Of a stretch of DNA of 64,000 nt, positions 4,780 through 19,561 are shown piece after piece. Position 1 is the stretch's first letter. Each line of letters opens with the position of its first letter. The DNA lies in assembly GCA_963665665.1 (NCBI GenBank), contig OY762428.1, positions 5,056,001 to 5,120,000 on the forward strand, given 5' to 3'. The position numbers and the translations under genes were made by a program. Source of the stretch: Candidatus Kapaibacterium sp. (GTDB lineage: Bacteria; Bacteroidota; Ignavibacteria; Kapaibacteriales; UBA2268). The notes under the pieces were generated by a model. It saw only the letters and a program-made list of their open reading frames with translations, searched no databases and was not told the DNA's origin.

Positions 4780-7700
4780 TTACCTGTTCAAAAGAACTTT
4801 TCCTGATGTCGTGAAGTTCTCGCCTGTTACGCGGAATACGTAAGCGCCGTTGGCAAGGCCTTCGCCGTCGATGTATATGTCGTGCATACCCTGGCCGAGT
4901 TCCCCGCTGAAAACGTCAAGGACTTTCGCGCCGCGGCTGTCGAATAATTCAACAGTTACGCGCTGCCCCTGTGACAGGCTCAGACCAAAGCTTGTGCGGG
5001 AGACAAAGGGGTTGGGGTAAGCATCAGAAATCTGATTTTCGCCTTCACGCAGGCTGGAATGTTCGTAAATTTTCCAATCACCGCGTTTTAGGGAGTTTCC
5101 TGGGTATGTAAATCCACCATTACCGAATCCGGAATAACGCTGGTTTAGGAAGGCATATACTTCCTGAGTTCCGGCAGTATTCCAAACTGCGTCGTAAATC
5201 ATAATGTCAGCTAATTTACCGTTATAATTATCAGAGTATGTTTCGCCAGTGTTATAATCGTGATAACATGTGCGTGCGGCACCGCCAACACCGGATGCAT
5301 CATCGCGTGTAACGTCATTGGTGAAGTCTCTGCTGATACCAGCGAAATCAACCCAGTCTGAAACCACAGTAGAATGACCATTATCGTTAACACTTATAAT
5401 TCCACGAAAGCGATTATTGGTGTTATCATATTCAAGGTGAGCCAGATATACTTTGTCATGTTCATATATATCGTCATTACCTGGGTAGAATCTAATAAAT
5501 TTCTCCTGGAACCTGTTCCACATTCCGAAAACCAAGTCACCATTTTCCTGGTAAATATTATATCCTGATAATGGGCCACCAGCTTCAAACAAGCACATAC
5601 GTTCATCGGAATAATAAGGTGTTGATGGTTCTGAGTAATTAGTTTCCAAGGGTTGGAATACAACAAAAAGGTTTTTAGCTTTTGTATTGTCAGGATTCCA
5701 CTTGTCATCTTCACCTGTTGTTATTTCATCATGGGGTGAAGAATTTCCGATACCAGTAGTATGGTCGTTGGGAGAAACCATTATATCAGAATTACCATAG
5801 CCAGTATTAGTATAATCTGTTGTGAATTTTACAGCCGGGAAGCCTTCGATACCACCTGTACCAACAGCGTAGCTTAATATTGGTTTTTTCCTTGAGTCCG
5901 GAGTAACTGCATCTTCTTTGATCTGAGTATCATCAGGCCAAACTGTTACTGGAAGGAATTTCCCTGAACTAATTAGAAGTGGATTCAACCATAGAACCAA
6001 ATCATTTTCATTAGGCGGACAATAAGGATCAGTCCAGAAGAATTTTCCAGGGCCACAATTAGTCCAAGTACCACCATCACCATCAGAAAAATGATGACCG
6101 TCGCGAATTTCCGGTTCCAAAGATAGGCAGGTTGAAAATGTTTCTATAAATGACTCAGGAAATTCATATGCCATATAGTCATCACTAGCCCTATGGAATG
6201 TACATTCCTGGAATACTGTGTTCCCCTGATAACCACTGGGTACACCACTGGGTACATAACCAATATTTCCATGATCTTCTCCTCTGACAACAAATACCAT
6301 ATTTTGAAGGAAACTCTGGTCGGGTGTTGCACATGTAACAAGTGCCCCATTTCCCCAAATAACTGCGTTTTCATGATTATTAGTTGATAAGGCCGGACCA
6401 TTAAGAGTTACACCTTTACTTATTGTAAATGGTTCATATAATCCGGCTGTCAAATGGATGATACTATTTGATACATAATCAATCGCCTCGTCAATTCTTG
6501 AACCACTTATCTGATCACTTCCAGATGAAACTCCAACAACATCTTTGTTAATTTGGAATCCTGATTCTTCCGTATCTTCATCACTCGATGAATGAAGCCA
6601 AGGGGTGAAGTCCGTTTTACCATTAGTATTAGCAAATTCAATTGTATTCCTAACATCAGTATAACCAGTAAATCCCCAATAATTTTTTGAGCAATCAAGA
6701 TCATTACCGGTATTGTCAATAAGGTTTTTGCCATTATCGTTAAGATAATTTTCCAAAATGACAGCTTCTGTATTATCACCTTCACCATAACCGACATATA
6801 TACCAGTTGAATTGTGATGTATGATATTATTTTTAATCTCAACGTCTGTACCAAGCCCGTAATAATCTGTTGCTAAGATACCGGCAGATGTTGATCCATC
6901 AACATCTGCAATGCCGTAGCAATTTGTTAAAGTATTATTTGATGCGCTTCCTGTTGCACAAGCTCCAAATTCGATGCCATAATCAAGCCAATCACCATTT
7001 CCTTTACCTGTATAATTATTTCCAATCAAATTAATATTATTGGGAGCAGAAGAAAAAGTGTAAGATCCAAAATTGTCATATCCTTTTCTTACATGCATAC
7101 CGATTCTTTGAATATTGTTGAAGACACAATTTTCTACATTAATATCGTGTCCAAATATTACTATTGCTCTACCATAATATGTACCGGCTTTAATATTTTT
7201 GAACTTACAGTTCTTAATAAAACCATAACCCATGTGACAAATACACCAGTCTGTTATCTGACCTGGAGCCTGTCCATCAAATTCTAAGTCTTTTATTTTA
7301 ACATTGTTGCCTGGTTCAATTAAAAACCAAACATCAGAAGGTTTGTAATTTGCTGCTGTTGTATTTCCAGTATGAACAACTTTGCTGGTATTAGCATCAA
7401 ATCCGTATAATTTGATACTTTTATCAATCACGATCTGATTTGGTTCATTTACAGTACCATGTACATTAAGTTCATCACCAGCACTTGCTTCATCAATTGC
7501 AGGTTGAATGTTGTTGTACCATAAATTTTGGGTAACATTGTGTACTTTTTTAGTTAGCCATGGATCAAAGTCTGTTACACCAGTAGAGGCATCAACAACC
7601 CATTCACCGGCAGAAGTACTAGCATAGCTTGGCCCGTCATTTGAATTCCACCAGCAGTTTTCTGCATCAATGTTTTGGGTAGTAATGTTTTCAATACCCC

Positions 7701-8787
7701 GGGTATTTCCCCCAAAATTGCAAGAATTTATGCTGACTAAAGAAGGACTTTGATTATTTTTTCCAACTTCTCCTACCCTGAAAGCAACTCTGTTGTCAAC
7801 AAAATTGCAATCAGAAACACTAACATTTGACAGTGTAGCAGGATATGATAAATAACTTGTATCGTCAGAACTGGATCCACGAGCTTTGAACATCAGGGCT
7901 GCTCCATTAGTAGCCATCGAAGCCGTACCATTATTTTCATATGTGCAACTTATGATTGATATATTCTGATAAGTTCCTGCTTTTAGATTGAAATCAAATC
8001 CGCACAGCCAAGGGAGAAAATAAGTACATGCACCGCTCCATCCAATTACTCCATTGTCATATATTTCGCAATTTGTAAATGATGCATTTTCTAATTTTTC
8101 AACATACAATGCTTTGGAAACATTACTATAGAACTTTGAATTTGATACAAGTACATTTGTTACAGTACTTGCATCGGTACTAAAATCTTTGTGAAAATAC
8201 CATCCATATATTAATTCTTTGAATTCGCAATTATTAATATTTAGATTCGATAGAGATGATGTTTTGTCAACATAAATACCTCTTTCCTGTTCGCCACATC
8301 CTGTTGCTGGGCTTGTGCCATCAACAATAATGTTTTCAAGTGTAATATACTCAATATTCTGTGAAGTAGCTTCTGAAAATCTGCCAACAGATATACCAGC
8401 CAAGCCATTAACTTCAATACTTAAATCTTGAATCAATATCTGATTTGATGATGTGCCCGAAGCAGATAACTGAACAACACCAATTTTTGGATCACCTGCA
8501 CCTGCCGCTGTTTGTGTTATTACTGTACTTCCACTACCAGCGCCAATCAGGCTGATTCTTCTGTCTATATTGATATTTTCAGTATAAACACCAGCTGCAA
8601 CCTGAATAACATCGCCCGGAGATGCTGCATTGATCGCTGCCTGGATGGTAGCATGATCAGCCGGAACATTTATGGTTGCCCCGAAGCTAACACCCGCGCC
8701 GAGTATGCACAGCATGATGGCGGCAAGCATTATTTGTACTTTTCTTTTCATCGGCCTCCTCCTGTTATTTAATTTGTTAGTTGTCAT
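4780..8787 (-). CDS. Large T9SS cargo protein: right-handed beta-helix (pectin-lyase-like) modules, LamG/ConA-like domain, T9SS C-terminal sorting domain
   Basis: Signal peptide (true start may be MKRKVQ). Repeated TIQAAINAASPGD / NIQPAIDEASAGD openers and NxW...DFxPWL closers. CTD AYPNPF...LFDSRGAKV...GAYVFRV...GKVLLNR. Confidence 0.75.
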   Translation of the reverse strand: MTTNKLNNRRRPMKRKVQIMLAAIMLCILGAGVSFGATINVPADHATIQAAINAASPGDVIQVAAGVYTENINIDRRISLIGAGSGSTVITQTAAGAGDPKIGVVQLSASGTSSNQILIQDLSIEVNGLAGISVGRFSEATSQNIEYITLENIIVDGTSPATGCGEQERGIYVDKTSSLSNLNINNCEFKELIYGWYFHKDFSTDASTVTNVLVSNSKFYSNVSKALYVEKLENASFTNCEIYDNGVIGWSGACTYFLPWLCGFDFNLKAGTYQNISIISCTYENNGTASMATNGAALMFKARGSSSDDTSYLSYPATLSNVSVSDCNFVDNRVAFRVGEVGKNNQSPSLVSINSCNFGGNTRGIENITTQNIDAENCWWNSNDGPSYASTSAGEWVVDASTGVTDFDPWLTKKVHNVTQNLWYNNIQPAIDEASAGDELNVHGTVNEPNQIVIDKSIKLYGFDANTSKVVHTGNTTAANYKPSDVWFLIEPGNNVKIKDLEFDGQAPGQITDWCICHMGYGFIKNCKFKNIKAGTYYGRAIVIFGHDINVENCVFNNIQRIGMHVRKGYDNFGSYTFSSAPNNINLIGNNYTGKGNGDWLDYGIEFGACATGSASNNTLTNCYGIADVDGSTSAGILATDYYGLGTDVEIKNNIIHHNSTGIYVGYGEGDNTEAVILENYLNDNGKNLIDNTGNDLDCSKNYWGFTGYTDVRNTIEFANTNGKTDFTPWLHSSSDEDTEESGFQINKDVVGVSSGSDQISGSRIDEAIDYVSNSIIHLTAGLYEPFTISKGVTLNGPALSTNNHENAVIWGNGALVTCATPDQSFLQNMVFVVRGEDHGNIGYVPSGVPSGYQGNTVFQECTFHRASDDYMAYEFPESFIETFSTCLSLEPEIRDGHHFSDGDGGTWTNCGPGKFFWTDPYCPPNENDLVLWLNPLLISSGKFLPVTVWPDDTQIKEDAVTPDSRKKPILSYAVGTGGIEGFPAVKFTTDYTNTGYGNSDIMVSPNDHTTGIGNSSPHDEITTGEDDKWNPDNTKAKNLFVVFQPLETNYSEPSTPYYSDERMCLFEAGGPLSGYNIYQENGDLVFGMWNRFQEKFIRFYPGNDDIYEHDKVYLAHLEYDNTNNRFRGIISVNDNGHSTVVSDWVDFAGISRDFTNDVTRDDASGVGGAARTCYHDYNTGETYSDNYNGKLADIMIYDAVWNTAGTQEVYAFLNQRYSGFGNGGFTYPGNSLKRGDWKIYEHSSLREGENQISDAYPNPFVSRTSFGLSLSQGQRVTVELFDSRGAKVLDVFSGELGQGMHDIYIDGEGLANGAYVFRVTGENFTTSGKVLLNR

Positions 8788-8896
8788 TTTTTTACTCTTC
8801 AGAGAAATTTCAATTAAAAAATTTTGGCTTTGGTCATTGCCCGGGATTTTATTCCCTTATGTTTTCACTGGTACAAACATAATGAAGTGCAAACAG

Positions 8897-8971
8897 AAAG
8901 TAAATACCTGAAAACACGTAATTTATAAAAATCCCGAAAACTACGTATTTTGCATCCGTGTTTCTACGTAG
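8897..8971. promoter_or_regulatory. Conserved operator copy A (three TACG-N8-CGTA-like 16-bp sites)
   Basis: Aligns with 11870..11943. A TATGTTTG (TAnnTTTG -7 element) lies on the minus strand at 8874-8881, just downstream. Confidence 0.6.
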
Positions 8972-9052
8972 TGGCTTTCTACGTAGTTCTCGGTATATGA
9001 GTTTGTATTTATTTTTATCGTTTTTCATTCTAATTTATCTGATTACATATAT

Positions 9053-11731
9053 TTAGCGGATTACAACGATTTTCTGCACTTCTGTACGCCCCCCGAATTC
9101 AAGGCGCAAATAAAAAATTCCGGGATTAAGATTTTCCGTATCAATCCGGTATGTTTGGCTCCCTTTGGCCTGATTTCCGTTGAAAATATCCATTACTTTT
9201 TTTCCGGAAACATCAAAAAGGCTCAGTGAAATTGCTCCACTTTCATCTAAACTGATATTTACATTGCAAATATCACGGCAGGGATTTGGCGACGGCAACC
9301 CGAGGCTTTGGTTGAAATCCCTTGAAACCGGGTCAAGGCTTTTAATAATTTCACTTGCCATAGCCGGGCGTTTCCCGTATTCGCCGCCCATGAAATATTT
9401 CTGGAGCAGGTAAGCTGTTACCCAGTCATTTTGCTGCATGGTTTCGGGCCTGTAGCCGGGGTATGGTTCCTCCTGGTATGATTCGTCAGGAACCCATATA
9501 GTGTGTTCTGTATCCCCGTTATTAAGCAGGATTACATCTCCAATCACGCCGCTGAAGTGATTTGAATATGTCTCGCCGGTATTGTAGTCGTGGTAGCAGG
9601 TACGGGCAGCCCCACCGATGGCAGAAAAGTCCATACCGTCCTGCGAGAAACCGTCGAAGCCAAATCCTGAATTTTGAATGGGAAAATATATAAACTGCTC
9701 AATATTGTCAATGCCGATACCTATTCTGAGTTCATCAGTCTCAGGGCTGTATCCTACATGCAGCAGATATGTAAACGTAGATTCCAGTGGGGATAGATAT
9801 TCCAGCCAGGGGAAAGAACCCAACAGTTCCGGATCGCTTATTCCGAGGGCATAGAACTTGGACTGATACCTGTTCCAGAACCCAAAGCATAGCTGGTTGT
9901 TATAATAATACAGGTTCATACCGCTCATAGGGCCGCCAATTTCGAACAGTGTCTGCCTGCCGTCCGAGTAATATGGAATATCTCCTTCAAGCGGGGTCTG
10001 TGGTTTAAAAACAATAAAGAAGTCCTTTGCTGCCGGATCCGGCATCCAGAGATTATCCATACCCGTTGTTACTTCATGGCTATAATGGCTTATCATAATA
10101 TCAGACTGTCCGTAACTGCCATGCCCGATATCTCCATCGAAGTGCACACCCGGCAGATCGGGAGACGGGAAATTAACAAATATTCCAGGTTCAGCTGAAC
10201 TTTCAACATATCTTGGCCTGCGTGCCTCTAAATCCATGTAGGCTTCCTCGTGTACCCATTTTGGCGAACAGTCGTCCCAGTAGCGTATATGGTCGCCATC
10301 TTCGTGATGAGTGAGAGATTGGGGATTGAACCACAGGGCAATATCCGGGGCGGGTGCGTCAGGCATTATCTGTATTTCCGTTTCCCCGAGTTTTTCGCCG
10401 GGAATAAATCCCACAGGATTCCCGGGGTCTTCAACAGCTTCGAATATTTCGAAAATAATGGTATTATTGAGGCCAAGTATTGGTATTTCGGGATTTGTAT
10501 TGAATTCGAACTCGAGTATTGTCCATTCCGAGCCAAGATCGGGAGGATCAATGGGAGCTTCCGGAACCCAGTGTGAACCGGGGCCAAGATCAATTTTTGT
10601 AAATACGTCAAAGAATGAGTCAACCCACCAGTCGGACGACGTTTTCTTTAGTTTGGGTTTCACAAGTATTTTCTTCGCAACGCTTGAACGATTTCTCAGG
10701 AAAACCTGTGCTTTTGTTAGAATACCGGCTTTAATCCTTATATCCCTGCCGGATTTAACTTCAATACCGGGGCCGGGGCCTCCGGGAGCGCCGGGCCAGG
10801 GGGGAGGCATGAAATGAATCCACCAGTTCGGTGCAATGAATACTATAGTGTCCTTGGGAGGATCGATAATTACAGTACGTGTTTCAAGTGAATCAAGTAT
10901 TGGCGGCATTGGCGGTGTTCCTATTGGGCCGGAAACATCATCCGGATTGTTCGGATCAGCAGAACCGCGGTAGAATACCCATTCATATACTTCATTATCA
11001 ATAGCGTCCTCTCCGTAAATACTGAAGCTGTTATTAAATCCGTAGGCCCCGAAAGCCCCATAAAATGCCGACCAGTTCCATCCCGGATCGCCGGGTTCTG
11101 CCATACCGGGGAACCAGTGTACATCTGTTGAAGGATCATCGTTGTAGCGGACAATGAAGCCAACATCGGTAATTAAATTGTTATTTGAATGGTCTCCATC
11201 CTCAGGGATTAGATGGCTGAACTGCAGGCCGTCAGAGAAATTTATCCATCCGCTATCATCGGTTTTGTCGTCATTGCCGAGTATCCAGCATTTAACTTTA
11301 ACACCTGCTATGTATGTTTCAGCCACGTTCCAGTCGTTATTTTCCTGTTGCCTGAAAGCCAGCAGCGGATCATTTGACTGCCCTTCAATATCATGAGCAA
11401 TAAAAAAAGCAGTTCCGGGATAGAACGTTATACTACTTGAAGAACTCGTGGCAGTCCAGCCGTTCCTGTGCTCATACCAGAAGAATCCTGCATTGCAGTA
11501 TTGGTGCATCGGGTCGGCGAACCAATCGGGATATTTGCTTGCATAGTACCATTCTTCAGGGAATGATAATGATACCTGCCCGTCAACCTGCGGGTGTATT
11601 GGGCTAACTCCGTCGAACATTGTGTAGGGCGTGATGTTGGTACTGTTTCCCCGCATTGGTTCCAGGGAGTATGCCCTGAAACTGATGCACAGGAACAGTA
11701 ACATAAGGAATGTTGTAATAGATTTCTTCAT
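9053..11731 (-). CDS. T9SS cargo protein with Pro-rich linker, LamG/ConA-like domain and T9SS CTD
   Basis: Signal peptide; shares GGAARTCYHDYNTGETYS domain with 4780..8787; CTD SPNPC...LFDVSGKKV...GIFYLRL...QKIVVIR. Confidence 0.72.
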   Translation of the reverse strand: MKKSITTFLMLLFLCISFRAYSLEPMRGNSTNITPYTMFDGVSPIHPQVDGQVSLSFPEEWYYASKYPDWFADPMHQYCNAGFFWYEHRNGWTATSSSSSITFYPGTAFFIAHDIEGQSNDPLLAFRQQENNDWNVAETYIAGVKVKCWILGNDDKTDDSGWINFSDGLQFSHLIPEDGDHSNNNLITDVGFIVRYNDDPSTDVHWFPGMAEPGDPGWNWSAFYGAFGAYGFNNSFSIYGEDAIDNEVYEWVFYRGSADPNNPDDVSGPIGTPPMPPILDSLETRTVIIDPPKDTIVFIAPNWWIHFMPPPWPGAPGGPGPGIEVKSGRDIRIKAGILTKAQVFLRNRSSVAKKILVKPKLKKTSSDWWVDSFFDVFTKIDLGPGSHWVPEAPIDPPDLGSEWTILEFEFNTNPEIPILGLNNTIIFEIFEAVEDPGNPVGFIPGEKLGETEIQIMPDAPAPDIALWFNPQSLTHHEDGDHIRYWDDCSPKWVHEEAYMDLEARRPRYVESSAEPGIFVNFPSPDLPGVHFDGDIGHGSYGQSDIMISHYSHEVTTGMDNLWMPDPAAKDFFIVFKPQTPLEGDIPYYSDGRQTLFEIGGPMSGMNLYYYNNQLCFGFWNRYQSKFYALGISDPELLGSFPWLEYLSPLESTFTYLLHVGYSPETDELRIGIGIDNIEQFIYFPIQNSGFGFDGFSQDGMDFSAIGGAARTCYHDYNTGETYSNHFSGVIGDVILLNNGDTEHTIWVPDESYQEEPYPGYRPETMQQNDWVTAYLLQKYFMGGEYGKRPAMASEIIKSLDPVSRDFNQSLGLPSPNPCRDICNVNISLDESGAISLSLFDVSGKKVMDIFNGNQAKGSQTYRIDTENLNPGIFYLRLEFGGRTEVQKIVVIR

Positions 11732-11869
11732 GATATCTCCTTGTATATAAATGTTGAAATTAGTTTCAAATTCAGTGTACAGATAGCATTCATGCGGATA
11801 TATAAGAAATAATCAATATCGTTTCTTTATGCTATCCGTCTTAATTTCAACTTATTACAAAGAGTTGTA

Positions 11870-11943
11870 AAAGTAAATACCATGAACATGGTATTTTATA
11901 TAAATACCGTGAAATACGTATTTTCATCCGTATTTATACGTAG
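11870..11943. promoter_or_regulatory. Conserved operator copy B
   Basis: AAAGTAAATACC...TACGTATTTT-CATCCGT...TACGTAG, colinear with copy A and upstream of the paralogous T9SS gene. Confidence 0.6.
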
Positions 11944-11961
11944 AAGGTGTGAAAATAATAA

Positions 11962-11989
11962 ATGCCCGATGCGCTTTTGCACCGGGCAT
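11962..11989 (-). terminator. Rho-independent terminator of 12019..13815
   Basis: ATGCCCG...CGGGCAT stem followed by a T-rich tract on the minus strand. Confidence 0.6.
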
Positions 11990-12018
11990 ATTATACTGGA
12001 ATTATAATGTTAAGGAAA

Positions 12019-13815
12019 TTAACGCCTGACTATAAAACCGGTAGAGAATTGGCTTTTTCTGTTTGTTACTATTAATATATAAGCTCCATTTGGAAGGCTC
12101 TGCAGGTCAATTTTTTCTGAATTTTTATCGCGGAAAACAATTGTTGAATTCATATCAATAATTTTAATTTCATATTCTGAAAATTCAGGAACCGATATGT
12201 TCAGATAATCGCTTGCCGGATTGGGATATATTTCAATATTTCCGTCTGTCAGGTCATCAGTAACAGAAAGATATCCAAGAACGCGTATGGATATAAAACC
12301 CTGAGCCGGCTGGTATCCATCCTGCTCAAATTGAATTTTGATATAATAATTGCCTTTCTCTAAACTGTCGGGAATAATAACAGTGTAATGAATTTTGCCG
12401 CTGCCGTCTGTTGTCATACTACTGTCAATATTGCTTATCGGATCATTCAGAATAAGATCAGTATTTGGTATCGGATTTTGATTCTCGTCAAGAAGAGTTA
12501 TTTCAAATTCCCGGCTCTGTTCCCAATACATATCCTGTAATTCTTCGGGAGAGACATGGAAGTAAGTTTCGATAATATGATTTACGTTGATTACTTTTTC
12601 AACATTCATTCCTTTTGCATATCCGTCTTTTTCAGTTTCAATGCTAATTGTATAATTACCGTTGGATATATCATCAGGGACTGTAATATTGATTATTGCT
12701 TCACCGTTTTCATCTGTTGTATAAGTATCGCTTGAAGAATCCATAGAATTTGAAATCTTTACTTCTACACCCGGAATAACATTGCCGGTTTCGTCACTAA
12801 CTGTTACGGTGAATGATACAGGTTCGCCAATATCAGCACTTGTCGTATCTTCAGGCGAAATGTGATTAATCAGAACAGACTGATCCACAGGATACATGGA
12901 ATGATACAATCCCATGTTGGTAGCAAGATAAAGCCTTTTATTGTCGTCAGCGGCCATATCAAGGATCGTAATTGGTTCGGGCATATTAGCGTTTAATTTT
13001 GTCCAGTTAATTCCATTATCAGAGGAACGGTAAATTCCTCCGTTTGCTGTTCCTGCAAAAATATAATCGCCACATGCAAAAAGGCTTCTGATACTTTTAA
13101 TTTCGAGCCCCTTGTTCGATTTTTTCCAACTGTTGCCATCGTCGTCAGTGTAATAGATACCATCGCTGACGGCGGCCACAATTCTGCCGTCGGCTGCTTC
13201 AACGAAGTCATAAGTAGTTACATTATAGAAGAAACCGCTTTCAGTCCAGCTTTCACCGTTATCAGATGAATAAAAAGTACCATTATGATGAGTACCTGCG
13301 TATAGATCGCCGGATTTTGTACAATATACGGCGTGGACATCGTTATCTTTAACTCCTATCCTTTTCCATTCTTCATTTGATTTATCATATTTATAAACAC
13401 CACCGTAAAACCACATTCCTGCAATCAGATTTCCATTTTTATCAGATGAAAGACATAATGCATTATTATTATCAAGTGAGTTGTTGTATTCATTCCAGTT
13501 TAGCCCATTGTCTCCGGAAAAATAAATTCCTCCGCCGTTAGTGGCTGTATATATATTGCTTCCTTCAACATGAAAATCCCTGATAAGTTTATTAGCAGGT
13601 GCCTGATCAGGGTAGGCCCAATTCTTAAGATCAGTTGAAAACAGAATGCCCTTTCCCTCGATACCAGTCAGGATAGTAGATGAATTAATTACTTCAACAG
13701 CTTGAACAACACCTGTTTCGGGAAGATCAATTTTTTCCCAATATGCATTTAAAGAGTAATTTAGAGAAAAGATAATCAGAAATGATAAGCCGATTAGAAT
13801 TTTGAAGTTAACCAC
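12019..13815 (-). CDS. T9SS cargo protein: BNR/beta-propeller, Ig-like (Big_1-like) domains and CTD
   Basis: SxDxGxxW Asp-box repeats, TTDENG/TTDGSG Ig motifs, CTD IYPNPASD...LPNGAYIL. Confidence 0.8.
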   Translation of the reverse strand: MVNFKILIGLSFLIIFSLNYSLNAYWEKIDLPETGVVQAVEVINSSTILTGIEGKGILFSTDLKNWAYPDQAPANKLIRDFHVEGSNIYTATNGGGIYFSGDNGLNWNEYNNSLDNNNALCLSSDKNGNLIAGMWFYGGVYKYDKSNEEWKRIGVKDNDVHAVYCTKSGDLYAGTHHNGTFYSSDNGESWTESGFFYNVTTYDFVEAADGRIVAAVSDGIYYTDDDGNSWKKSNKGLEIKSIRSLFACGDYIFAGTANGGIYRSSDNGINWTKLNANMPEPITILDMAADDNKRLYLATNMGLYHSMYPVDQSVLINHISPEDTTSADIGEPVSFTVTVSDETGNVIPGVEVKISNSMDSSSDTYTTDENGEAIINITVPDDISNGNYTISIETEKDGYAKGMNVEKVINVNHIIETYFHVSPEELQDMYWEQSREFEITLLDENQNPIPNTDLILNDPISNIDSSMTTDGSGKIHYTVIIPDSLEKGNYYIKIQFEQDGYQPAQGFISIRVLGYLSVTDDLTDGNIEIYPNPASDYLNISVPEFSEYEIKIIDMNSTIVFRDKNSEKIDLQSLPNGAYILIVTNRKSQFSTGFIVRR

Positions 13816-14036
13816 TGTATTACCTCGTGTAAAAATTAGTAAAACCCGAAATTAAGGAGAATGCCGATTTCTCCGGAAAACACGAGAAAATAAACTCCGA
13901 AAATATTATTCGCAGGCAATGACCATTTTTAATTTAATGGAAAATGAATGAATCAACAAATTAATTTTTTTTAAGGATAATCAGATTACAAATAGTAGTA
14001 TAAATTTTGTATTAATATTGATAAACAAAATGTTTG

Positions 14037-14044
14037 TATATTTG
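14037..14044 (+). promoter_or_regulatory. Bacteroidota-type -7 promoter element
   Basis: TATATTTG (TAnnTTTG) about 35 nt upstream of the tilS start. Confidence 0.45.
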
Positions 14045-14078
14045 TAACTTGATTTTATAGTAATTTAAAAGATTATTT

Positions 14079-17000
14079 ATGGCTAAAAGAGTTAAAAAAG
14101 CAAACGATACTGAAAATCGTGATACAAAGATTACCCCTGATTCAGAAAAAAATGAAGTTGATAATAAGTCAGAATCTAAAGTGAAAAGAAAACCCGGCAG
14201 GCCGAAGAAATCAACTGCTAAGAAAACAACGGAAAAACCGGCAGAAGTAAAATCGGAAGTAAAAGAGACAGCAACTCCAACGAAAGAAGTTGAAGCAAAA
14301 GTTGTGAAACCGTCTGCTGATACTAAGTCCGAACAGCCAAAGCCAGCACGCAAGCGTCCGGGAAGGCCGAAGAAAGCAACTGCTAAGAAAACAACGGCAA
14401 AACCGGCAGAAGTAAAATCGGAAGTAAAAGAGACAGCAACTCCAACGAAAGAAGTTGAAGCAAAAGCTGTGAAACCGTCTGCTGATACTAAGTCCGAACA
14501 GCCAAAGCCAACACGTAAACGTCCGGGCAGGACGAGAAAATCAACTGCAAAGAAAACAACGGGAAAACCGGCAGAAGTAAAATCGGAAGTAAAAGAGACA
14601 ACAACTCCTGCAAAAGAAGTTGAAGCAAAAGCTGTTGCTAATGCTAAACCTGATACCGCTAAAACGTCAGAAGAAATAAAAACCGTGAAGCCAAAGCCAG
14701 CACGTAAACGTCCGGGCAGGCCGAAGAAAGCTACTGCAAAGAAAACAACGGAAAAACCGGCAGAAGTAAAATCGGTAGCAAAAGAGACAACAACTCCCGC
14801 ACAAGAAGTTGAAGCAAAAGCTGTGAAACCGTCTGCTGATACTAAGTCCGAACAGCCAAAGCCAGCACGCAAGCGTCCGGGAAGGCCGAAGAAAGCAACT
14901 GCAAAGAAAACAACGGCAAAACCGGCAGAAGTAAAATCGGAAGTAAAAGAGACAACAACTCCAACGAAAGAAGTTGAAGCAAAAGCTGTGAAACCGTCTG
15001 CTGATACTAAGTCCGAACAGCCAAAGCCAGCACGCAAGCGTCCGGGCAGTCCGAGAAAGACAGTGGCAAAGAAAACAACGGCAAAGAAAACAACGGCAAA
15101 GAAAACAACGGCAAAGAAAACAACGGCAAAGAAAACAACGGCAAAACCGGCAGAAGTAAAATCGGAAGTAAAAGAGACAACAACTCCAACGAAAGAAGTT
15201 GAAGCAAAAGCTGTGAAACCGTCTGCTGATACTAAGTCCGAACAGCCAAAGCCAACACGTAAACGTCCGGGCAGGACGAGAAAATCAACTGCAAAGAAAA
15301 CAACGGGAAAACCGGCAGAAGTAAAATCGGAAGTAAAAGAGACAACAACTCCTGCACAAGAAGTTGAAGCAAAAGCTGTTGCTAATGCTAAACCTGATAC
15401 CGCTAAAACGTCAGAAGAAATAAAAACCGTGAAGCCAAAGCCAGCACGCAAGCGTCCGGGAAGGCCGAAAAGGTCAGCTGACAGGCAGCCAATATCAAAT
15501 GATAATGAATCGAAGGAAACAGTAACAGGCCTTAAAACAACTGATACTCAATCCGTTAAGACGGAGACAAAACCTGGTCAGCAGAAAACAACCCGTAAAC
15601 GTCCGGGAAGGTCGAAAAAAACTACTTCAATGAATACGGCGACAAAACCCGACGGGAAAAAAGAAACCACTAAAACTGAAATACCGGATGCTAAACCGGA
15701 AGAACAAAAAAAACAACAGCATAAACGGCACGGTGGTGGCGGACAAAGAAGATCGGCAAAGAAACCAGAAGAACAGCAAAGGGCAAATAGAAGAAATATT
15801 ACTCAGGCAATTGAAAAAGCCAAAATTGAAGATAATGATAATAATTCTCAGGTTGCTGACTCTCCGGTTAGTAAATCAAATGATAAAAAAGGGCCGGGAA
15901 GAATTGCACCGCAAAAAAATAAGAATGCACATCCCCAAAAGGATAGTAAAAGCCCAAACCAGCAACAGAAGCAAAGAAGACAGCCCGATAATCAACAATT
16001 AAGGCAAAATAAAGGACATCAGGACAAGAAAATTTCCGGGAAATACCAACAGAAATCGAAATTTCAGCAAGAAAAGCCAAACCTGGCAATGATTCAGGAG
16101 AGAAAGGAAAAAGAAAAAACACACTACCAGGAATTACTGAAGAAATTAGGATTGATTGAAAAAGATAATATCCTGATGGATAAAATTCCCAAGAAGAGTA
16201 TATTTTCGAGAAGAAGGTCCGCTCCGGTGAAAAAGGATTCAATTCTTACTAAAGAGCAAAGATCTGACCTGTTCCTTAGAATGTTTCATTCCGAAGTTGA
16301 AAAATATCTGAAGAACAAATTGTTTGTTGAACCCGGTTCCGAGATAGTCGTTGCAGTAAGCGGCGGAGTCGATTCCGTTGTTTTACTGGATACTCTTGTT
16401 GTTTTGGCAGAGAAGAATTATTACCGGCTTATTGTAGCTCATTATAATCATAATTTACGTGCTGAGGAATCCGATAAGGATGAGGAATTTGTTAAAGCCC
16501 TTGCAAAATCCTATGGGCTGACATTCCATTGTTCCCAGGGCAGGGTTAAGCAATATGCCGAGAAAAAATCTTTAAGTATTGAAGAATCCGCAAGAATATT
16601 GCGATATATGTTCCTTGAAAGGGTTGCCAGAAATGTACGTTCTACTCTCGTTGCTACTGCTCACAGCAAAGATGATTCAGCTGAAACATTTCTTATAAAT
16701 CTCCTGAGGGGTTCCGGACTGACCGGCCTGAGTGGTATTCCTTCGCAAAGAGCTCTCGGAAAAAATGTTACTCTTGTCAGGCCATTGCTGGCTATGAGTA
16801 AATCCCAGTTTAAGAAATATGCAGAAAAACGAAATCTTCAGTGGCGTGAAGATGAATCCAACGAATTTACCAATTATACCAGAAACAAAGTTCGCTTGGA
16901 CCTGATTCCTGAATTAGTCAACGAGTACAACCCAAAAATAATGGACGTGCTTAATAGAACTGCAAAACTGATCAATGGTGCAGATGAATTTATATCCGAG

Positions 17001-17666
17001 TATATCAGGAATATTCTTGACGATGTGATTGGTGAGAAAAATTCCGATCGCTTCGCTATAAAAACATCCTTATTAAATACTTTTTCCAGGTTTATACAGG
17101 GCGAAATCATACAGGCCGCTATGTTTAAGCATTTCCAGCTTCAGTCACAATCTTTGAAAACTATCGACAGAATATTGGCTTTGTGCAACAAAGCTGTTGG
17201 AAGCATTTGTGAAATATCAAGGCAAATTATTGTTCTGCGCGACAGGGAAAACCTGATATTTGTAAGGAAACCTTCTGAAGAGAAAGTAAATCAGGAAATT
17301 AATAAAACAGGATTTTACAAAACTCCTGCCTACACGATAAAACTTGAAGAAGTAAGAGAAAAAGATGTTGATTTTACATTGGCTCCACAAGTTGAGTTCT
17401 TTGACTTCGACCTTATACCCCTGAAAATGACCCTGCGTTCCTGGCAGCCGGGAGATAAATTTCAGCCTCTCGGTATGAAGGGCGAAATGAAACTTAGTGA
17501 CTTTCTAACAAACTCGAAAGTTCCTTTGATCGACAAATCAGGAATTCTTGTCCTTACAACAGGAAAAAATGACATTGTCTGGGTTTGCGGAATGAGAATA
17601 AACGATAAGTTTAAAATTTCATCAACAACCAAGAAGTATCTGAAAGTAAGTTACAACGCTACATAA
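14079..17666 (+). CDS. tilS: tRNA(Ile)-lysidine synthetase with long basic, repetitive N-terminal extension
   Basis: C-terminal ~450 aa has the PP-loop VAVSGGVDS, HYNHNLR, TAHSKDDSAET, RPLL, WREDESN, RNKVR and the TilS-C motif LRSWQPGDKFQPLGMKG. Adjacent to hpt. Confidence 0.93.
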   Translation: MAKRVKKANDTENRDTKITPDSEKNEVDNKSESKVKRKPGRPKKSTAKKTTEKPAEVKSEVKETATPTKEVEAKVVKPSADTKSEQPKPARKRPGRPKKATAKKTTAKPAEVKSEVKETATPTKEVEAKAVKPSADTKSEQPKPTRKRPGRTRKSTAKKTTGKPAEVKSEVKETTTPAKEVEAKAVANAKPDTAKTSEEIKTVKPKPARKRPGRPKKATAKKTTEKPAEVKSVAKETTTPAQEVEAKAVKPSADTKSEQPKPARKRPGRPKKATAKKTTAKPAEVKSEVKETTTPTKEVEAKAVKPSADTKSEQPKPARKRPGSPRKTVAKKTTAKKTTAKKTTAKKTTAKKTTAKPAEVKSEVKETTTPTKEVEAKAVKPSADTKSEQPKPTRKRPGRTRKSTAKKTTGKPAEVKSEVKETTTPAQEVEAKAVANAKPDTAKTSEEIKTVKPKPARKRPGRPKRSADRQPISNDNESKETVTGLKTTDTQSVKTETKPGQQKTTRKRPGRSKKTTSMNTATKPDGKKETTKTEIPDAKPEEQKKQQHKRHGGGGQRRSAKKPEEQQRANRRNITQAIEKAKIEDNDNNSQVADSPVSKSNDKKGPGRIAPQKNKNAHPQKDSKSPNQQQKQRRQPDNQQLRQNKGHQDKKISGKYQQKSKFQQEKPNLAMIQERKEKEKTHYQELLKKLGLIEKDNILMDKIPKKSIFSRRRSAPVKKDSILTKEQRSDLFLRMFHSEVEKYLKNKLFVEPGSEIVVAVSGGVDSVVLLDTLVVLAEKNYYRLIVAHYNHNLRAEESDKDEEFVKALAKSYGLTFHCSQGRVKQYAEKKSLSIEESARILRYMFLERVARNVRSTLVATAHSKDDSAETFLINLLRGSGLTGLSGIPSQRALGKNVTLVRPLLAMSKSQFKKYAEKRNLQWREDESNEFTNYTRNKVRLDLIPELVNEYNPKIMDVLNRTAKLINGADEFISEYIRNILDDVIGEKNSDRFAIKTSLLNTFSRFIQGEIIQAAMFKHFQLQSQSLKTIDRILALCNKAVGSICEISRQIIVLRDRENLIFVRKPSEEKVNQEINKTGFYKTPAYTIKLEEVREKDVDFTLAPQVEFFDFDLIPLKMTLRSWQPGDKFQPLGMKGEMKLSDFLTNSKVPLIDKSGILVLTTGKNDIVWVCGMRINDKFKISSTTKKYLKVSYNAT
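14184..15473 (+). repeat. Coding tandem repeat, seven near-identical units of 165/189/225 bp (55/63/75 aa)
   Basis: Each unit begins RKRPGR-like and contains KPAEVKSEVKETxTPxxEVEAK. Near identity is visible at DNA level. Confidence 0.95.
15066..15140 (+). repeat. Perfect 15-bp tandem repeat x5 (AKKTT)
   Basis: GCAAAGAAAACAACG five times, nested in unit 6. Confidence 0.95.
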
Positions 17667-17704
17667 ATTATGTTTAATAATTTTGAAAATAACGATTTAT
17701 ATTT

Positions 17705-18247
17705 ATGAAAGCATTCAGGATCGGCGAATATAATTTCGGCCTTTACAAATCAGCAGAGGAGTTGCATGAAATTGTAAAAGGCCTTGCAAACCGGATAAAT
17801 AATGATTATGAAGGCAGAAAGCCGGTGTTCCTTATTGTGATGAAGGGGGCTTTTATTTTTGCCGCCGACCTGATAAGGCAAATAAACCTTAACTTGTCCG
17901 TTGAATTGATCAGGGCAAAGAGCTATGGCTCGTCCATGACAAGTTCCGGGAAGGTACAGCTTCAGCATTATGGAATTGATATCAAAGGCAGGGATGTTAT
18001 AATTGTTGAGGATATTGTAGATTCAGGCCTGACAATGGAATACCTGATGGCAAAAGTTCGGGATATGGGGGCTTCCAGCGTAGAAGCTGCTGCCCTGATT
18101 TCAAAAACCGAGATGAGGAAGACTAATGTAGATGTGAAATATACAGGAATGGATATTCCGCCTTTGTTCGTTATCGGTTACGGACTTGACTACGATGAGC
18201 AGGGGAGACATCTGCCCGACCTGTATATGCTTAATGAGGAGAAATAA
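17705..18247 (+). CDS. hpt: Hypoxanthine phosphoribosyltransferase
   Basis: MKGAFIFAADL, KSYG, PRPP motif IIVEDIVDSGLT, FVIGYGLDY. Confidence 0.95.
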   Translation: MKAFRIGEYNFGLYKSAEELHEIVKGLANRINNDYEGRKPVFLIVMKGAFIFAADLIRQINLNLSVELIRAKSYGSSMTSSGKVQLQHYGIDIKGRDVIIVEDIVDSGLTMEYLMAKVRDMGASSVEAAALISKTEMRKTNVDVKYTGMDIPPLFVIGYGLDYDEQGRHLPDLYMLNEEK

Positions 18248-19561
18248 TTATTTAAACTAAAGCGGAACATTTGTAGGAATATTCTTTAGCTGTTGATTAT
18301 TTCTTCGAATTATTTGAACAAAACTATCCCTTGATTAACGCTTAACCAATCCTGTTTTTGGGAATTATCCCGGAATAATGCAGAATCTCCCGTCTTTAAT
18401 TATCAAAAAATTCCCCGATATGTGCTTTCGATACTGATGCAATTGTATCTAAAAATCAAAAATATTGATATTCTGTGTTAAAGCAGCCTGACCCCGGCTG
18501 CAAAACCCTATTACCTGCCGGTGAAGCTGATATATATAATTTGGATAAAACTATAACTGATTAAAATTATTCAATTACATATTTAAATTAATATATTATC
18601 AGTAGTTATTATAATTTAATCAATCTGTTTTACCCTTGATATAGTTCATCTAACTAAATTATTTATACATCTAATAAAATTATAAATATGTTTTAATATA
18701 TTAATTATATAAATAACATATTTTACGATTCATCTTATTATTTAATTAATTCAAATTATGATTTACATAGTATATCTTTATTCTTAGATAAACTAAATAT
18801 ATTATAAATTATACTGTTAATATTCTAAATCAAATAGTTAATTTATTAATTCATATAAATAAAATTATAATATCAGAATATTAAATCATTTGATTATTCA
18901 GGAATATTCTAAAATTTGTAATTAACATGATAATTTGTAATCATAATTTTATTATTTGACTTTATAATTTTATAAGAAGGTTGTTTAAAACAATGATATA
19001 TATATTGTATTCAATATTTATACCTTAGGAATCAGTTTATATATAGTAATTGATGGAAGAATAAGCTGAACCAAAGGCTGTACGAGAAAAATTTTGAAAG
19101 AGAAGCCTAACCGTATCGATATATTTCATCAAATAAAATACTTACCCGCAAGTATAATCATGATGTCAGGGCTGATGAAAATTAATATACTCCGGTACTG
19201 AGCTTCTTTCAGGCATAAAATGATCCCTGTTTATCGGACAAATAATGATACATGGAATACAGTCGTATTATTTAAATAAATTGATTTGTTAATTATAAAA
19301 CAATTTCCTATTTTATTTCAGGTTGAATTTGATCTTACCCTGAAAAAGTCTCTTATGATTTTTGATTTTTCCTGAAAGGAACATTTGAAAACTTGTTGTT
19401 AAGAAGTTGAAATTTCATTTGTATAAAATGGAATTGCTTTGGGAAAATTGATTGGATATATGGCATTAAATGATATAAGAGAAGAATAGCATTAGAATAA
19501 ATTGACTTATGGTCAGGAAAAAATAACACGCGCTTTTGATGATTAACAAAAAGGGAAAGTC

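Follow-up and report, generated by a model that had tools for sequence, protein, structure and literature searches.

Why does a tRNA(Ile2) lysidine synthetase carry, ahead of its catalytic domain, a basic and probably disordered tail of some 700 residues? The question is raised by the tilS gene in a stretch of 64,000 nucleotides from Candidatus Kapaibacterium sp. (order Kapaibacteriales, class Ignavibacteria, phylum Bacteroidota; GenBank assembly GCA_963665665.1, contig OY762428.1, positions 5,056,001 to 5,120,000), which was analysed as a whole and is called the window below. The gene occupies positions 14079..17666 on the + strand and encodes a protein of 1195 residues (P0001) in one open frame with no internal stop, as an earlier, sequence-only reading of the window had stated. 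That reading had further described an extension of about 740 residues fused to TilS. The architecture is real, with a tail of about 720-735 residues, but it is not singular: P0001 is one extreme of an order-wide, hypervariable trait. The explanation which we favour, and which we consider probable though well short of certain, is that the gene yields a full-length protein whose polycationic tail would act as a tether.

A complete TilS behind the tail

The C-terminal 477 residues of P0001 (719-1195) constitute a complete type I TilS. The N-terminal PP-loop ATPase domain (residues 756-944; 16344..16910, +) was found with Pfam and NCBIfam models; PF01171 matched residues 756-939 with an E-value of 8.6e-53 and TIGR02432 scored 193.5 bits against a cut-off of 93.6. 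Its SGGVDS motif lies at residues 761-766, and S761, G762, G763, D765 and S766 were invariant in 40 homologues. The C-terminal substrate-binding domain CTD2, which makes the enzyme type I, covers residues 1118-1185 (17430..17633, +; PF11734, TilS_C, E 7e-08, 32.2 bits against a cut-off of 22; TIGR02433, 31.8 bits against 20.2). Over residues 743-1192 the core can be aligned along its full length with the TilS of Geobacillus kaustophilus (PDB 3A2K; E 6.4e-42), reaching residue 459 of the 464 of that chain. Since both domains score above their cut-offs and the alignment runs from end to end, the enzyme is a complete type I TilS, and the intact TilS that had been read behind the extension is borne out. 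It shares with the canonical enzyme the PP-loop with SGGxDS, the linker, CTD1 and CTD2, as well as an hpt-like gene downstream, and differs from it by the approximately 718 extra disordered residues at its N-terminus.

The start of the folded enzyme was placed with an alignment of relatives and an AlphaFold2 model of P0001, which was built with 40 homologues. It is formed by a clade-conserved motif, 'LTKEQRSD...', and the first helix (residues 719-747; 16233..16319, +). The first helices of the model are at residues 725-728 and 731-747, and the 10-residue block means of the predicted local distance difference test (pLDDT) are 88 for residues 721-730, 95 for 731-740 and 91 for 741-750. TilS has real work in this genome, because AUA accounts for 26 per 1000 codons and three tRNA genes with the anticodon CAT are present. 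Judged by these features, the C-terminal 477 residues are probably an ordinary active tRNA(Ile2) lysidine synthetase.

The tail and its reading frame

The tail, residues 1-718, is predicted to be disordered and is strongly basic. In the AlphaFold2 model residues 1-710 have no secondary structure and pLDDT block means of 30-50; the mean is 66 for residues 711-720 and 75-95 from residue 721 to the end. The first 715 residues contain 28% K+R versus 13% D+E, which gives a net charge of +0.15 per residue. No Pfam or NCBIfam model matched residues 1-735 above its cut-off, and the search of the ESM Atlas for look-alikes of the same residues returned no usable match.

An array of nine AT-hook-like [RK]3PG motifs, found by pattern search and with Tandem Repeats Finder, extends over residues 36-514 (14184..15620, +). 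The motifs, of the form [RK][RK][RK]PG, start at residues 36, 91, 146, 209, 264, 319, 394, 457 and 506. The five at 36, 91, 209, 264 and 457 have a GRP core and read RKRPGRPKK, KRKPGRPKK or RKRPGRPKR; the other four are without GRP and have PGRT (two), PGSP or PGRS. Nine motifs with five GRP cores had been counted in the sequence-only reading, and this count was confirmed exactly. The units headed by the motifs are 55, 55, 63, 55, 55, 75, 63 and 49 residues long and rich in K, T, A, P and E. Correspondingly, Tandem Repeats Finder detected a period of 165 nt (55 residues) repeated 5.2 times at 14199-15085, together with higher-order periods of 354 and 225 nt. A perfect 15-nt tandem repeat (5.4 copies, 100% matches; 15065..15145, +) encodes a run of (AKKTT)n. 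The linker between array and enzyme (residues 515-718; 15621..16232, +) is a Q/K/N/R-rich region of low complexity with a pLDDT below 50, and relatives have comparable Q/K/R/P-rich stretches adjoining the core. The AKKTT repeats and the Q/K/N/R-rich region following them had likewise been described correctly. From the repeat pattern, the tail appears to have grown by tandem duplication of the 55-residue unit.

The tail is open in one frame only. Over its length the TilS frame contains no stop, versus 33 and 75 stops in the other two forward frames. T-poor composition alone thus lacks the power to explain the open frame. The same holds in relatives: in 24 of 24 with tails of at least 100 residues the tail is stop-free in the TilS frame only. 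Single contigs assembled from two public runs (X1, X3) each cover 15440-17750 with no difference to the window, and a single contig from run X4, which belongs to a second study, covers 15461-17750 with four substitutions and no indel. The junction of tail and enzyme is therefore reproduced in independent contigs of two studies, and the absence of a frameshift between extension and TilS, as first read, stands. The substitutions of X4 (V482L, A521V, I535K and a synonymous one at S729) were all counted as tail and none as core, which together with the lack of indels indicates that the tail changes faster than the enzyme and yet stays in frame. We hold it very likely that the protein exists and is produced with its whole tail.

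Long tails on one gene

In this genome the tail has no equal. It is the longest stretch with at most 12% hydrophobic residues, with 675 residues versus 236 for the next; the remaining candidates of low hydrophobicity include, by reading of the sequences, IF2 and CheA-like linkers. A proteome-wide habit of long disordered tails was ruled out by the shortness of this runner-up. The stricter pattern [RK][RK]PGR[PT] has seven matches in tilS, and no other frame among the 13,279 of at least 80 residues in the 5.46-Mb genome has more than one. One of the only two other frames with the hook pattern, a 450-residue frame at G000:C1:24601-25950 (+) with a single KRKPGRPRK hook, looks transposase-like. 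Short frames consisting of TKAKMTHTKAK and ARGNARKARGN repeats at G000:C1:3269425-3269901 (+) and 2870689-2871171 (-) may be non-coding repeat DNA.

The same composition was found on a second protein, encoded outside the window. A 255-residue DksA/TraR C4 zinc-finger protein (G000:C1:1124400-1125188, -; L074:401-1165, -; PF01258, E 7e-07) begins with a tail of about 100 residues that consists of AKKTT/AKKST repeats and matches HC2 with an E-value of 8.6e-05 and 23.2 bits versus a cut-off of 40. As this protein shares the AKKTT composition with the TilS tail, the composition is used on at least two nucleic-acid-related proteins.

The possibility that the tail derives from fusion with a neighbouring K-rich gene was ruled out. 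The genes upstream of short tilS in relatives are ordinary: their hydrophobic fraction is 0.15-0.56 and their K+R content 5-25%, many have a sorting-domain-like end, and none encodes a separate basic protein. Hence the tail grew in place and was not captured from a neighbour.

An order-wide and hypervariable trait

Each of the 41 nearest genomes has one TilS, in many cases with a long open frame ahead of the PP-loop. In the 40 loci extracted the PP-loop begins at residue 31 to 936 of the frame, and 24 have a tail of at least 100 residues, mostly with the first start codon no more than about 20 codons after the upstream stop. In a sample of the order, 195 of 201 genomes had a TilS match. Among the 150 matches listed for the order, 90 frames were at least 600 residues long, 60 at least 800 and 20 at least 1000, with a maximum of 1492; a further 47 weaker matches lie outside this count and are probably mostly from families with the short form, so that the share of long forms is probably overstated. 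By a hand tally among the matches listed, the families f2, f4 and f5 have TilS of canonical length, about half of the window's family is short, and the rest of the order is mostly long. The short members of the window's family still keep a K-rich leader of 20-90 residues.

In the protein database the core had 160 matches with lengths of 657-2092 residues, of which the best 120 were 671-1442 residues long and 41-53% identical to the core. Those for which the sources give a name are called TilS of 'Candidatus Kapabacteria', 'Kapaibacterium' or 'Ignavibacteria bacterium', with single cases assigned to Bacteroidota or the Patescibacteria group. Outside the order, TilS was of ordinary size, as had been assumed at the outset. 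The 115 genomes sampled there (23 of the same class, and 92 from the rest of the phylum with 93 matches) gave 116 matches in total, and the frames were 267-535 residues long besides three outliers, namely one of 671 residues and two of 614 residues from a single genus. A true extension was ruled out for the two outliers that were inspected (the 671-residue frame and one of 614 residues), which are non-basic GC-rich read-through with a Met at the canonical position. Variable long TilS tails are thus a trait of the whole order and not a singular fusion.

The tails have no alignable sequence; the consensus consists of 'x' until about 45 residues before the PP-loop. Besides K/A/T/E/P-rich tails there are N-rich (L025), P/Q-rich (L028) and S/Q/K-rich (L006) ones, and two relatives (L014 of genome G034, L023 of G032) have R/D/E-rich tails of 560-610 residues with RDERR/DDRR-type repeats, which are mixed-charge and not lysine-rich. 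In the best 120 long homologues the mean net charge of the tail is +0.054 per residue, and 113 of the 120 tails are net positive. Arrays of at least three GRP cores were found in eight of the 120. Canonical RRGRPPK/RRGRPRK arrays of 3-6 copies occur in L026 (G003), P0082, P0024, P0032 and P0007, from other genera and on branches apart from P0001; that of L026 is a further RRGRPPK array with six GRP. On a tree of the cores (FastTree, midpoint rooting), hook arrays need at least four changes, three of which are forced by well-supported branches. P0001, which is on a long branch, stands apart from the other hook clades, and its nearest neighbours have no hook arrays. Since 112 of the 120 long tails are without a hook array, the AT-hook/H1 flavour is a local variant of a more general tail trait, and among the sequences compared the TilS of the window ranks with the longest and most hook-rich examples.

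A short conserved motif, KRLTDEEILFLA, was seen at the N-termini of P0006 and P0018, and TDEDILIMAAAE in L003; it is absent from P0001. It could be a short linear interaction motif.

The tail as a candidate nucleic-acid tether

An AT-hook consists, by definition, of a GRP core with K/R on its flanks and frequently a P nearby; such hooks also bind structured RNA (PMC11354804). Five of the nine tail motifs fit this definition. The AT-hook identity proposed in the sequence-only reading therefore stands for the GRP cores with their K/R flanks. The canonical core R-G-R-P, whose PRGRP enters the groove in HMGA1, is absent: the tail contains no RGRP and five PGRP. The best available argument for PGRP as a functional variant of the RGRP hook is that both occur in the same arrays in relatives; P0006 and P0010 have RRGRPKK, RPRGRPKK and RRPGRPKK within one array. 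This suggests that the two hooks may be equivalent and that the PGRP of the tail could function as a hook. A role of the tail as a nucleic-acid tether, which the sequence-only reading had suggested, is plausible because of the GRP cores flanked by K/R and P, the net charge of about +0.15 per residue and the mixture of RGRP and PGRP in relatives.

The mechanism that we propose would start from one full-length protein of 1195 residues, translated from the whole frame. Its tail would be a multivalent nucleic-acid-binding tether of low specificity, with nine hook-like sites about 55 residues apart and K-rich spacers between them, and would hold TilS on AT-rich nucleoid DNA (the genome has an A+T content of 61%) and/or on structured RNA or tRNA. 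Such tethering would raise the local concentration of the enzyme near its single substrate, from which lysidine formation might benefit. On balance we expect that the tail binds nucleic acid, be it DNA or RNA. A second, tail-borne activity of TilS in this order seems doubtful: the polycationic tail, be it AT-hook/H1-like as in this species or mixed-charge R/D/E or Q/K-rich as in others, could place TilS in a nucleoid- or RNA-associated condensate, in which tRNA(Ile2) would be lysidinylated at or near its site of synthesis, or an abundant tail could itself serve as a nucleoid-associated protein.

Several results weigh against the tether. In addition to the missing RGRP, the Pfam AT_hook model gave no match at E-values up to 10 in the tail or in a 31-residue unit, in a search in which weak matches are mostly filtered by HMMER and which had no positive control. 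The only Pfam match of the tail was to HC2 (histone H1-like), with an E-value of 1.2 and 9.6 bits versus a cut-off of 40, and the H1-like resemblance seems to be one of composition, not of homology. Binding by DNA hooks cannot be the general function of the tails, since 112 of the 120 are without hook arrays and seven are neutral or net negative. The repeat copies of P0001 are near-identical and differ at 22, 22 and 32 sites on codon positions 1, 2 and 3; they give no clear sign of purifying selection on the tail, a comparison that is uninformative because the copies are too similar. Codon usage in the tail is roughly genome-like for K and E, is distorted by the repeats and is not decisive either. 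The conservation of the frame does not prove that the tail is useful, because an essential enzyme lies downstream and the open frame would be kept regardless of any use of the tail. Furthermore, the contigs of four short-read runs end within 14250-15440, and the repeat array is bridged by none of them. The array is tiled by short pieces only, so the copy number of the repeat rests on the window's own single contig of 5.46 Mb. Finally, this genome might also make a short isoform, as Met735 corresponds to the canonical TilS N-terminus and GTG717 has a weak Shine-Dalgarno-like (SD-like) AAGG. Hooks are absent from most tails, and a few tails are not basic; what they all have in common may therefore be disorder and bulk charge, to which hooks would be one solution.

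Alternative explanations

The main rival of the tether is neutral expansion of low-complexity sequence. Slippage at the 5' end of tilS would have generated variants of which only those in frame and free of stops survive, and the tail would be made but have no specific function. Such a process would account for tails that are not conserved in sequence and vary widely in composition (K/T/A, R/D/E, N-rich, P/Q-rich), for the near-identical repeat copies with their spread of differences over the codon positions, for the AKKTT run with its perfect, microsatellite-like 15-nt repeat, for the short TilS in about half of the genomes of the window's family, and for the seven tails of 120 that are not net positive. 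It does not explain why the trait has been kept in the majority of families in the order, with 90 of the 150 matches listed reaching at least 600 residues, nor why it affects one gene only, as generic slippage would not single out tilS. The positive charge of 113 of the 120 tails, the recurrence of AT-hook arrays on separate branches and the K-rich leader retained by short family members are also at odds with it. Moreover, bacteria have a deletion bias, which should shrink useless sequence. We regard neutral expansion as possible but unlikely.

A different explanation is that a TilS of canonical length, translated from an internal start, is the main enzyme, and that the long form is minor or separately regulated. 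Two candidate starts come into question. The ATG of Met735 (16281..16283, +), which the sequence-only reading had named as an example, aligns with approximately residue 1 of G. kaustophilus TilS (3A2K), and the GTG of Val717 (16227..16229, +) is preceded by the AAGG about 10 nt upstream, which stems from Arg codons. SD-like motifs are in use in this genome, as they precede 35.5% of 2111 proxy starts versus 11.1% of internal controls, and the annotated ATG at 14079 has none. However, Met735 is not conserved (relatives have F, L, V or I at this position), it lies inside the confidently folded first helix (pLDDT about 95), and a start there would drop the clade-conserved motif just upstream, which is LLTxxQ..D/N PFF.NF in relatives and ILTKEQRSDLFLRMF here. 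In the stretch from -50 to -13 relative to the PP-loop, an ATG is missing from 13 of the 24 long-tail loci, and five lack ATG, GTG and TTG altogether; no start position is conserved. The 2.1-kb leader is stop-free in one frame only, which is unexpected if it were untranslated.

The distribution of promoter-like sites also speaks for the upstream start. The sequence TATATTTG, a promoter-like element with a Bacteroidota-type -7 motif, is located 35 nt upstream of the tilS ATG (14037..14044, +). Between 14037 and 17677 the only copy of TANNTTTG on the + strand is the one at 14037, and the interior of the tilS frame contains none. With 75 copies in the window versus 78.8 expected, the motif shows no enrichment, so that TATATTTG is weak evidence for a tilS promoter. 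Taken together, we consider an internal start as the source of the main enzyme very unlikely.

The tail could also act on the protein itself, as a charged 'entropic bristle', a solubility tag, or a handle for degradation or regulation of an aggregation-prone enzyme. In another bacterium TilS has been described as an obligate Hsp90 client (bioRxiv 10.1101/2025.07.01.662558), and it is disorder and charge, not motifs, that the tails have in common. The net-positive bias and the recurrent AT-hooks would, however, be unnecessary for solubility, and we rate this explanation as highly improbable. A variant in which the tail replaces a missing Hsp90 was ruled out, for the genome has an HtpG of its own (PF00183, E 9.7e-119).

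That the repeat array was mis-assembled, with a wrong copy number or length or a hidden indel, is hardly credible in spite of the short-read contigs ending within it, as the flanks and the junction of tail and enzyme were reproduced in two studies without indels, every piece inside the array has a match of at least 99%, the genome was assembled as one contig, and tails that reach 936 residues or more occur independently in relatives; a wrong copy number would alter the length of the tail and not its nature.

Gene neighbourhood

The start ATG of tilS is five codons past the preceding in-frame stop and stands at the end of an AT-rich spacer of 263 bp, on the other side of which a divergently transcribed gene encodes a secreted protein whose C-terminus is a sorting domain. 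Upstream of tilS, at 4780-13815 on the - strand, there are three consecutive large genes, all with a Por/T9SS C-terminal sorting domain (PF18962) at their end. A gene with a similar sorting-domain-like end often precedes tilS in relatives, too. Downstream of tilS lies a hpt-like phosphoribosyltransferase gene of 180 residues (17705..18247, +; PF00156, E 1.7e-24), which is followed by a very AT-rich region at 18250-19250 with a G+C content of 0.16-0.26 versus the 0.35-0.47 that is usual in the window.

Scans for sigma-70-type promoters (14 sites versus 8.0 expected) and for terminators (12 sites versus 5.6 expected) were uninformative. Nine of the 12 terminator-like matches, at 14272-15366 on the - strand, are one and the same hairpin (CAACTTCTT...GGAGTTG with a T-rich tail), which occurs once per protein repeat unit; we take these hairpins as a consequence of the repeat and not as terminators. 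An antisense frame of 479 residues (14012-15451, -), rich in F, V, S, A and G, runs through the repeat array; it seems to result from the low T content of the coding strand and not to be a gene.

Comparison with known systems

Lysine-rich N-terminal extensions of eukaryotic aminoacyl-tRNA synthetases add non-specific affinity for tRNA. As in TilS, a basic peptide is attached there to a tRNA-acting enzyme. However, these extensions comprise tens of residues and are partly helical, whereas the TilS tail is bacterial, repetitive and about 700 residues long.

CarD of Myxococcus xanthus likewise combines a folded domain with an unfolded, basic, HMGA-like region of repeated AT-hooks (PMC4374960). 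In CarD, which is a transcription factor, four canonical RGRP are found within about 140 residues at the C-terminus; in TilS nine PG(R)(P) variants are spread over about 500 N-terminal residues of a tRNA-modifying enzyme, and there is no homology between the two. According to the title of a reference therein (Garcia-Heras 2009), HMGA-like and histone H1-like domains are functionally equivalent, which matches the mix of hook-type and K/A/T-type TilS tails. Hc2 of Chlamydia, a histone H1-like protein, has similar K/A/T-rich repeats; the HC2 scores given above are below the cut-off and the likeness is one of composition only.

In Bacteroides thetaiotaomicron and other bacteria a disordered insertion in Rho is reported to lead to phase separation and raised activity (PMC10284900, PMC13269538, PMC11347177). 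There, as here, an essential and conserved nucleic-acid enzyme has a lineage-specific disordered region of biased composition. Unlike the TilS tail, the region in Rho is an insertion, in a different enzyme, and for the TilS tail the comparison is based on predicted disorder and charge.

In the literature that we searched, mostly open main texts, there was no description of an N-terminal extension or a disordered region of TilS and none that joined Kapabacteria with lysidine. In a comparative study of 2025, TilS variants are classed by their C-terminal domains only, and the word 'extension' is absent from it (PMC12514573). N-terminally extended TilS is thus an undescribed, order-wide architecture of a textbook enzyme, although the proteins are already public and plainly labelled TilS.

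Implications

For annotation, the finding means that gene callers could wrongly trim a tailed TilS to an internal start. For biology, TilS is essential and present in nearly all bacteria, with a single substrate known, and in this order it carries tails of 100 to about 1000 residues that are wholly different between genera. This constitutes a natural experiment on the role of long disordered regions in a bacterial enzyme and bears on the question raised by Rho of Bacteroides, namely how widely bacteria localise or condense core machinery via disordered regions. If TilS in this order has indeed acquired a second, tail-borne activity, the hypervariability of the tails would reflect selection on bulk charge and valency and not on sequence, and tilS would offer a bacterial single-gene model of the evolution of such tails.

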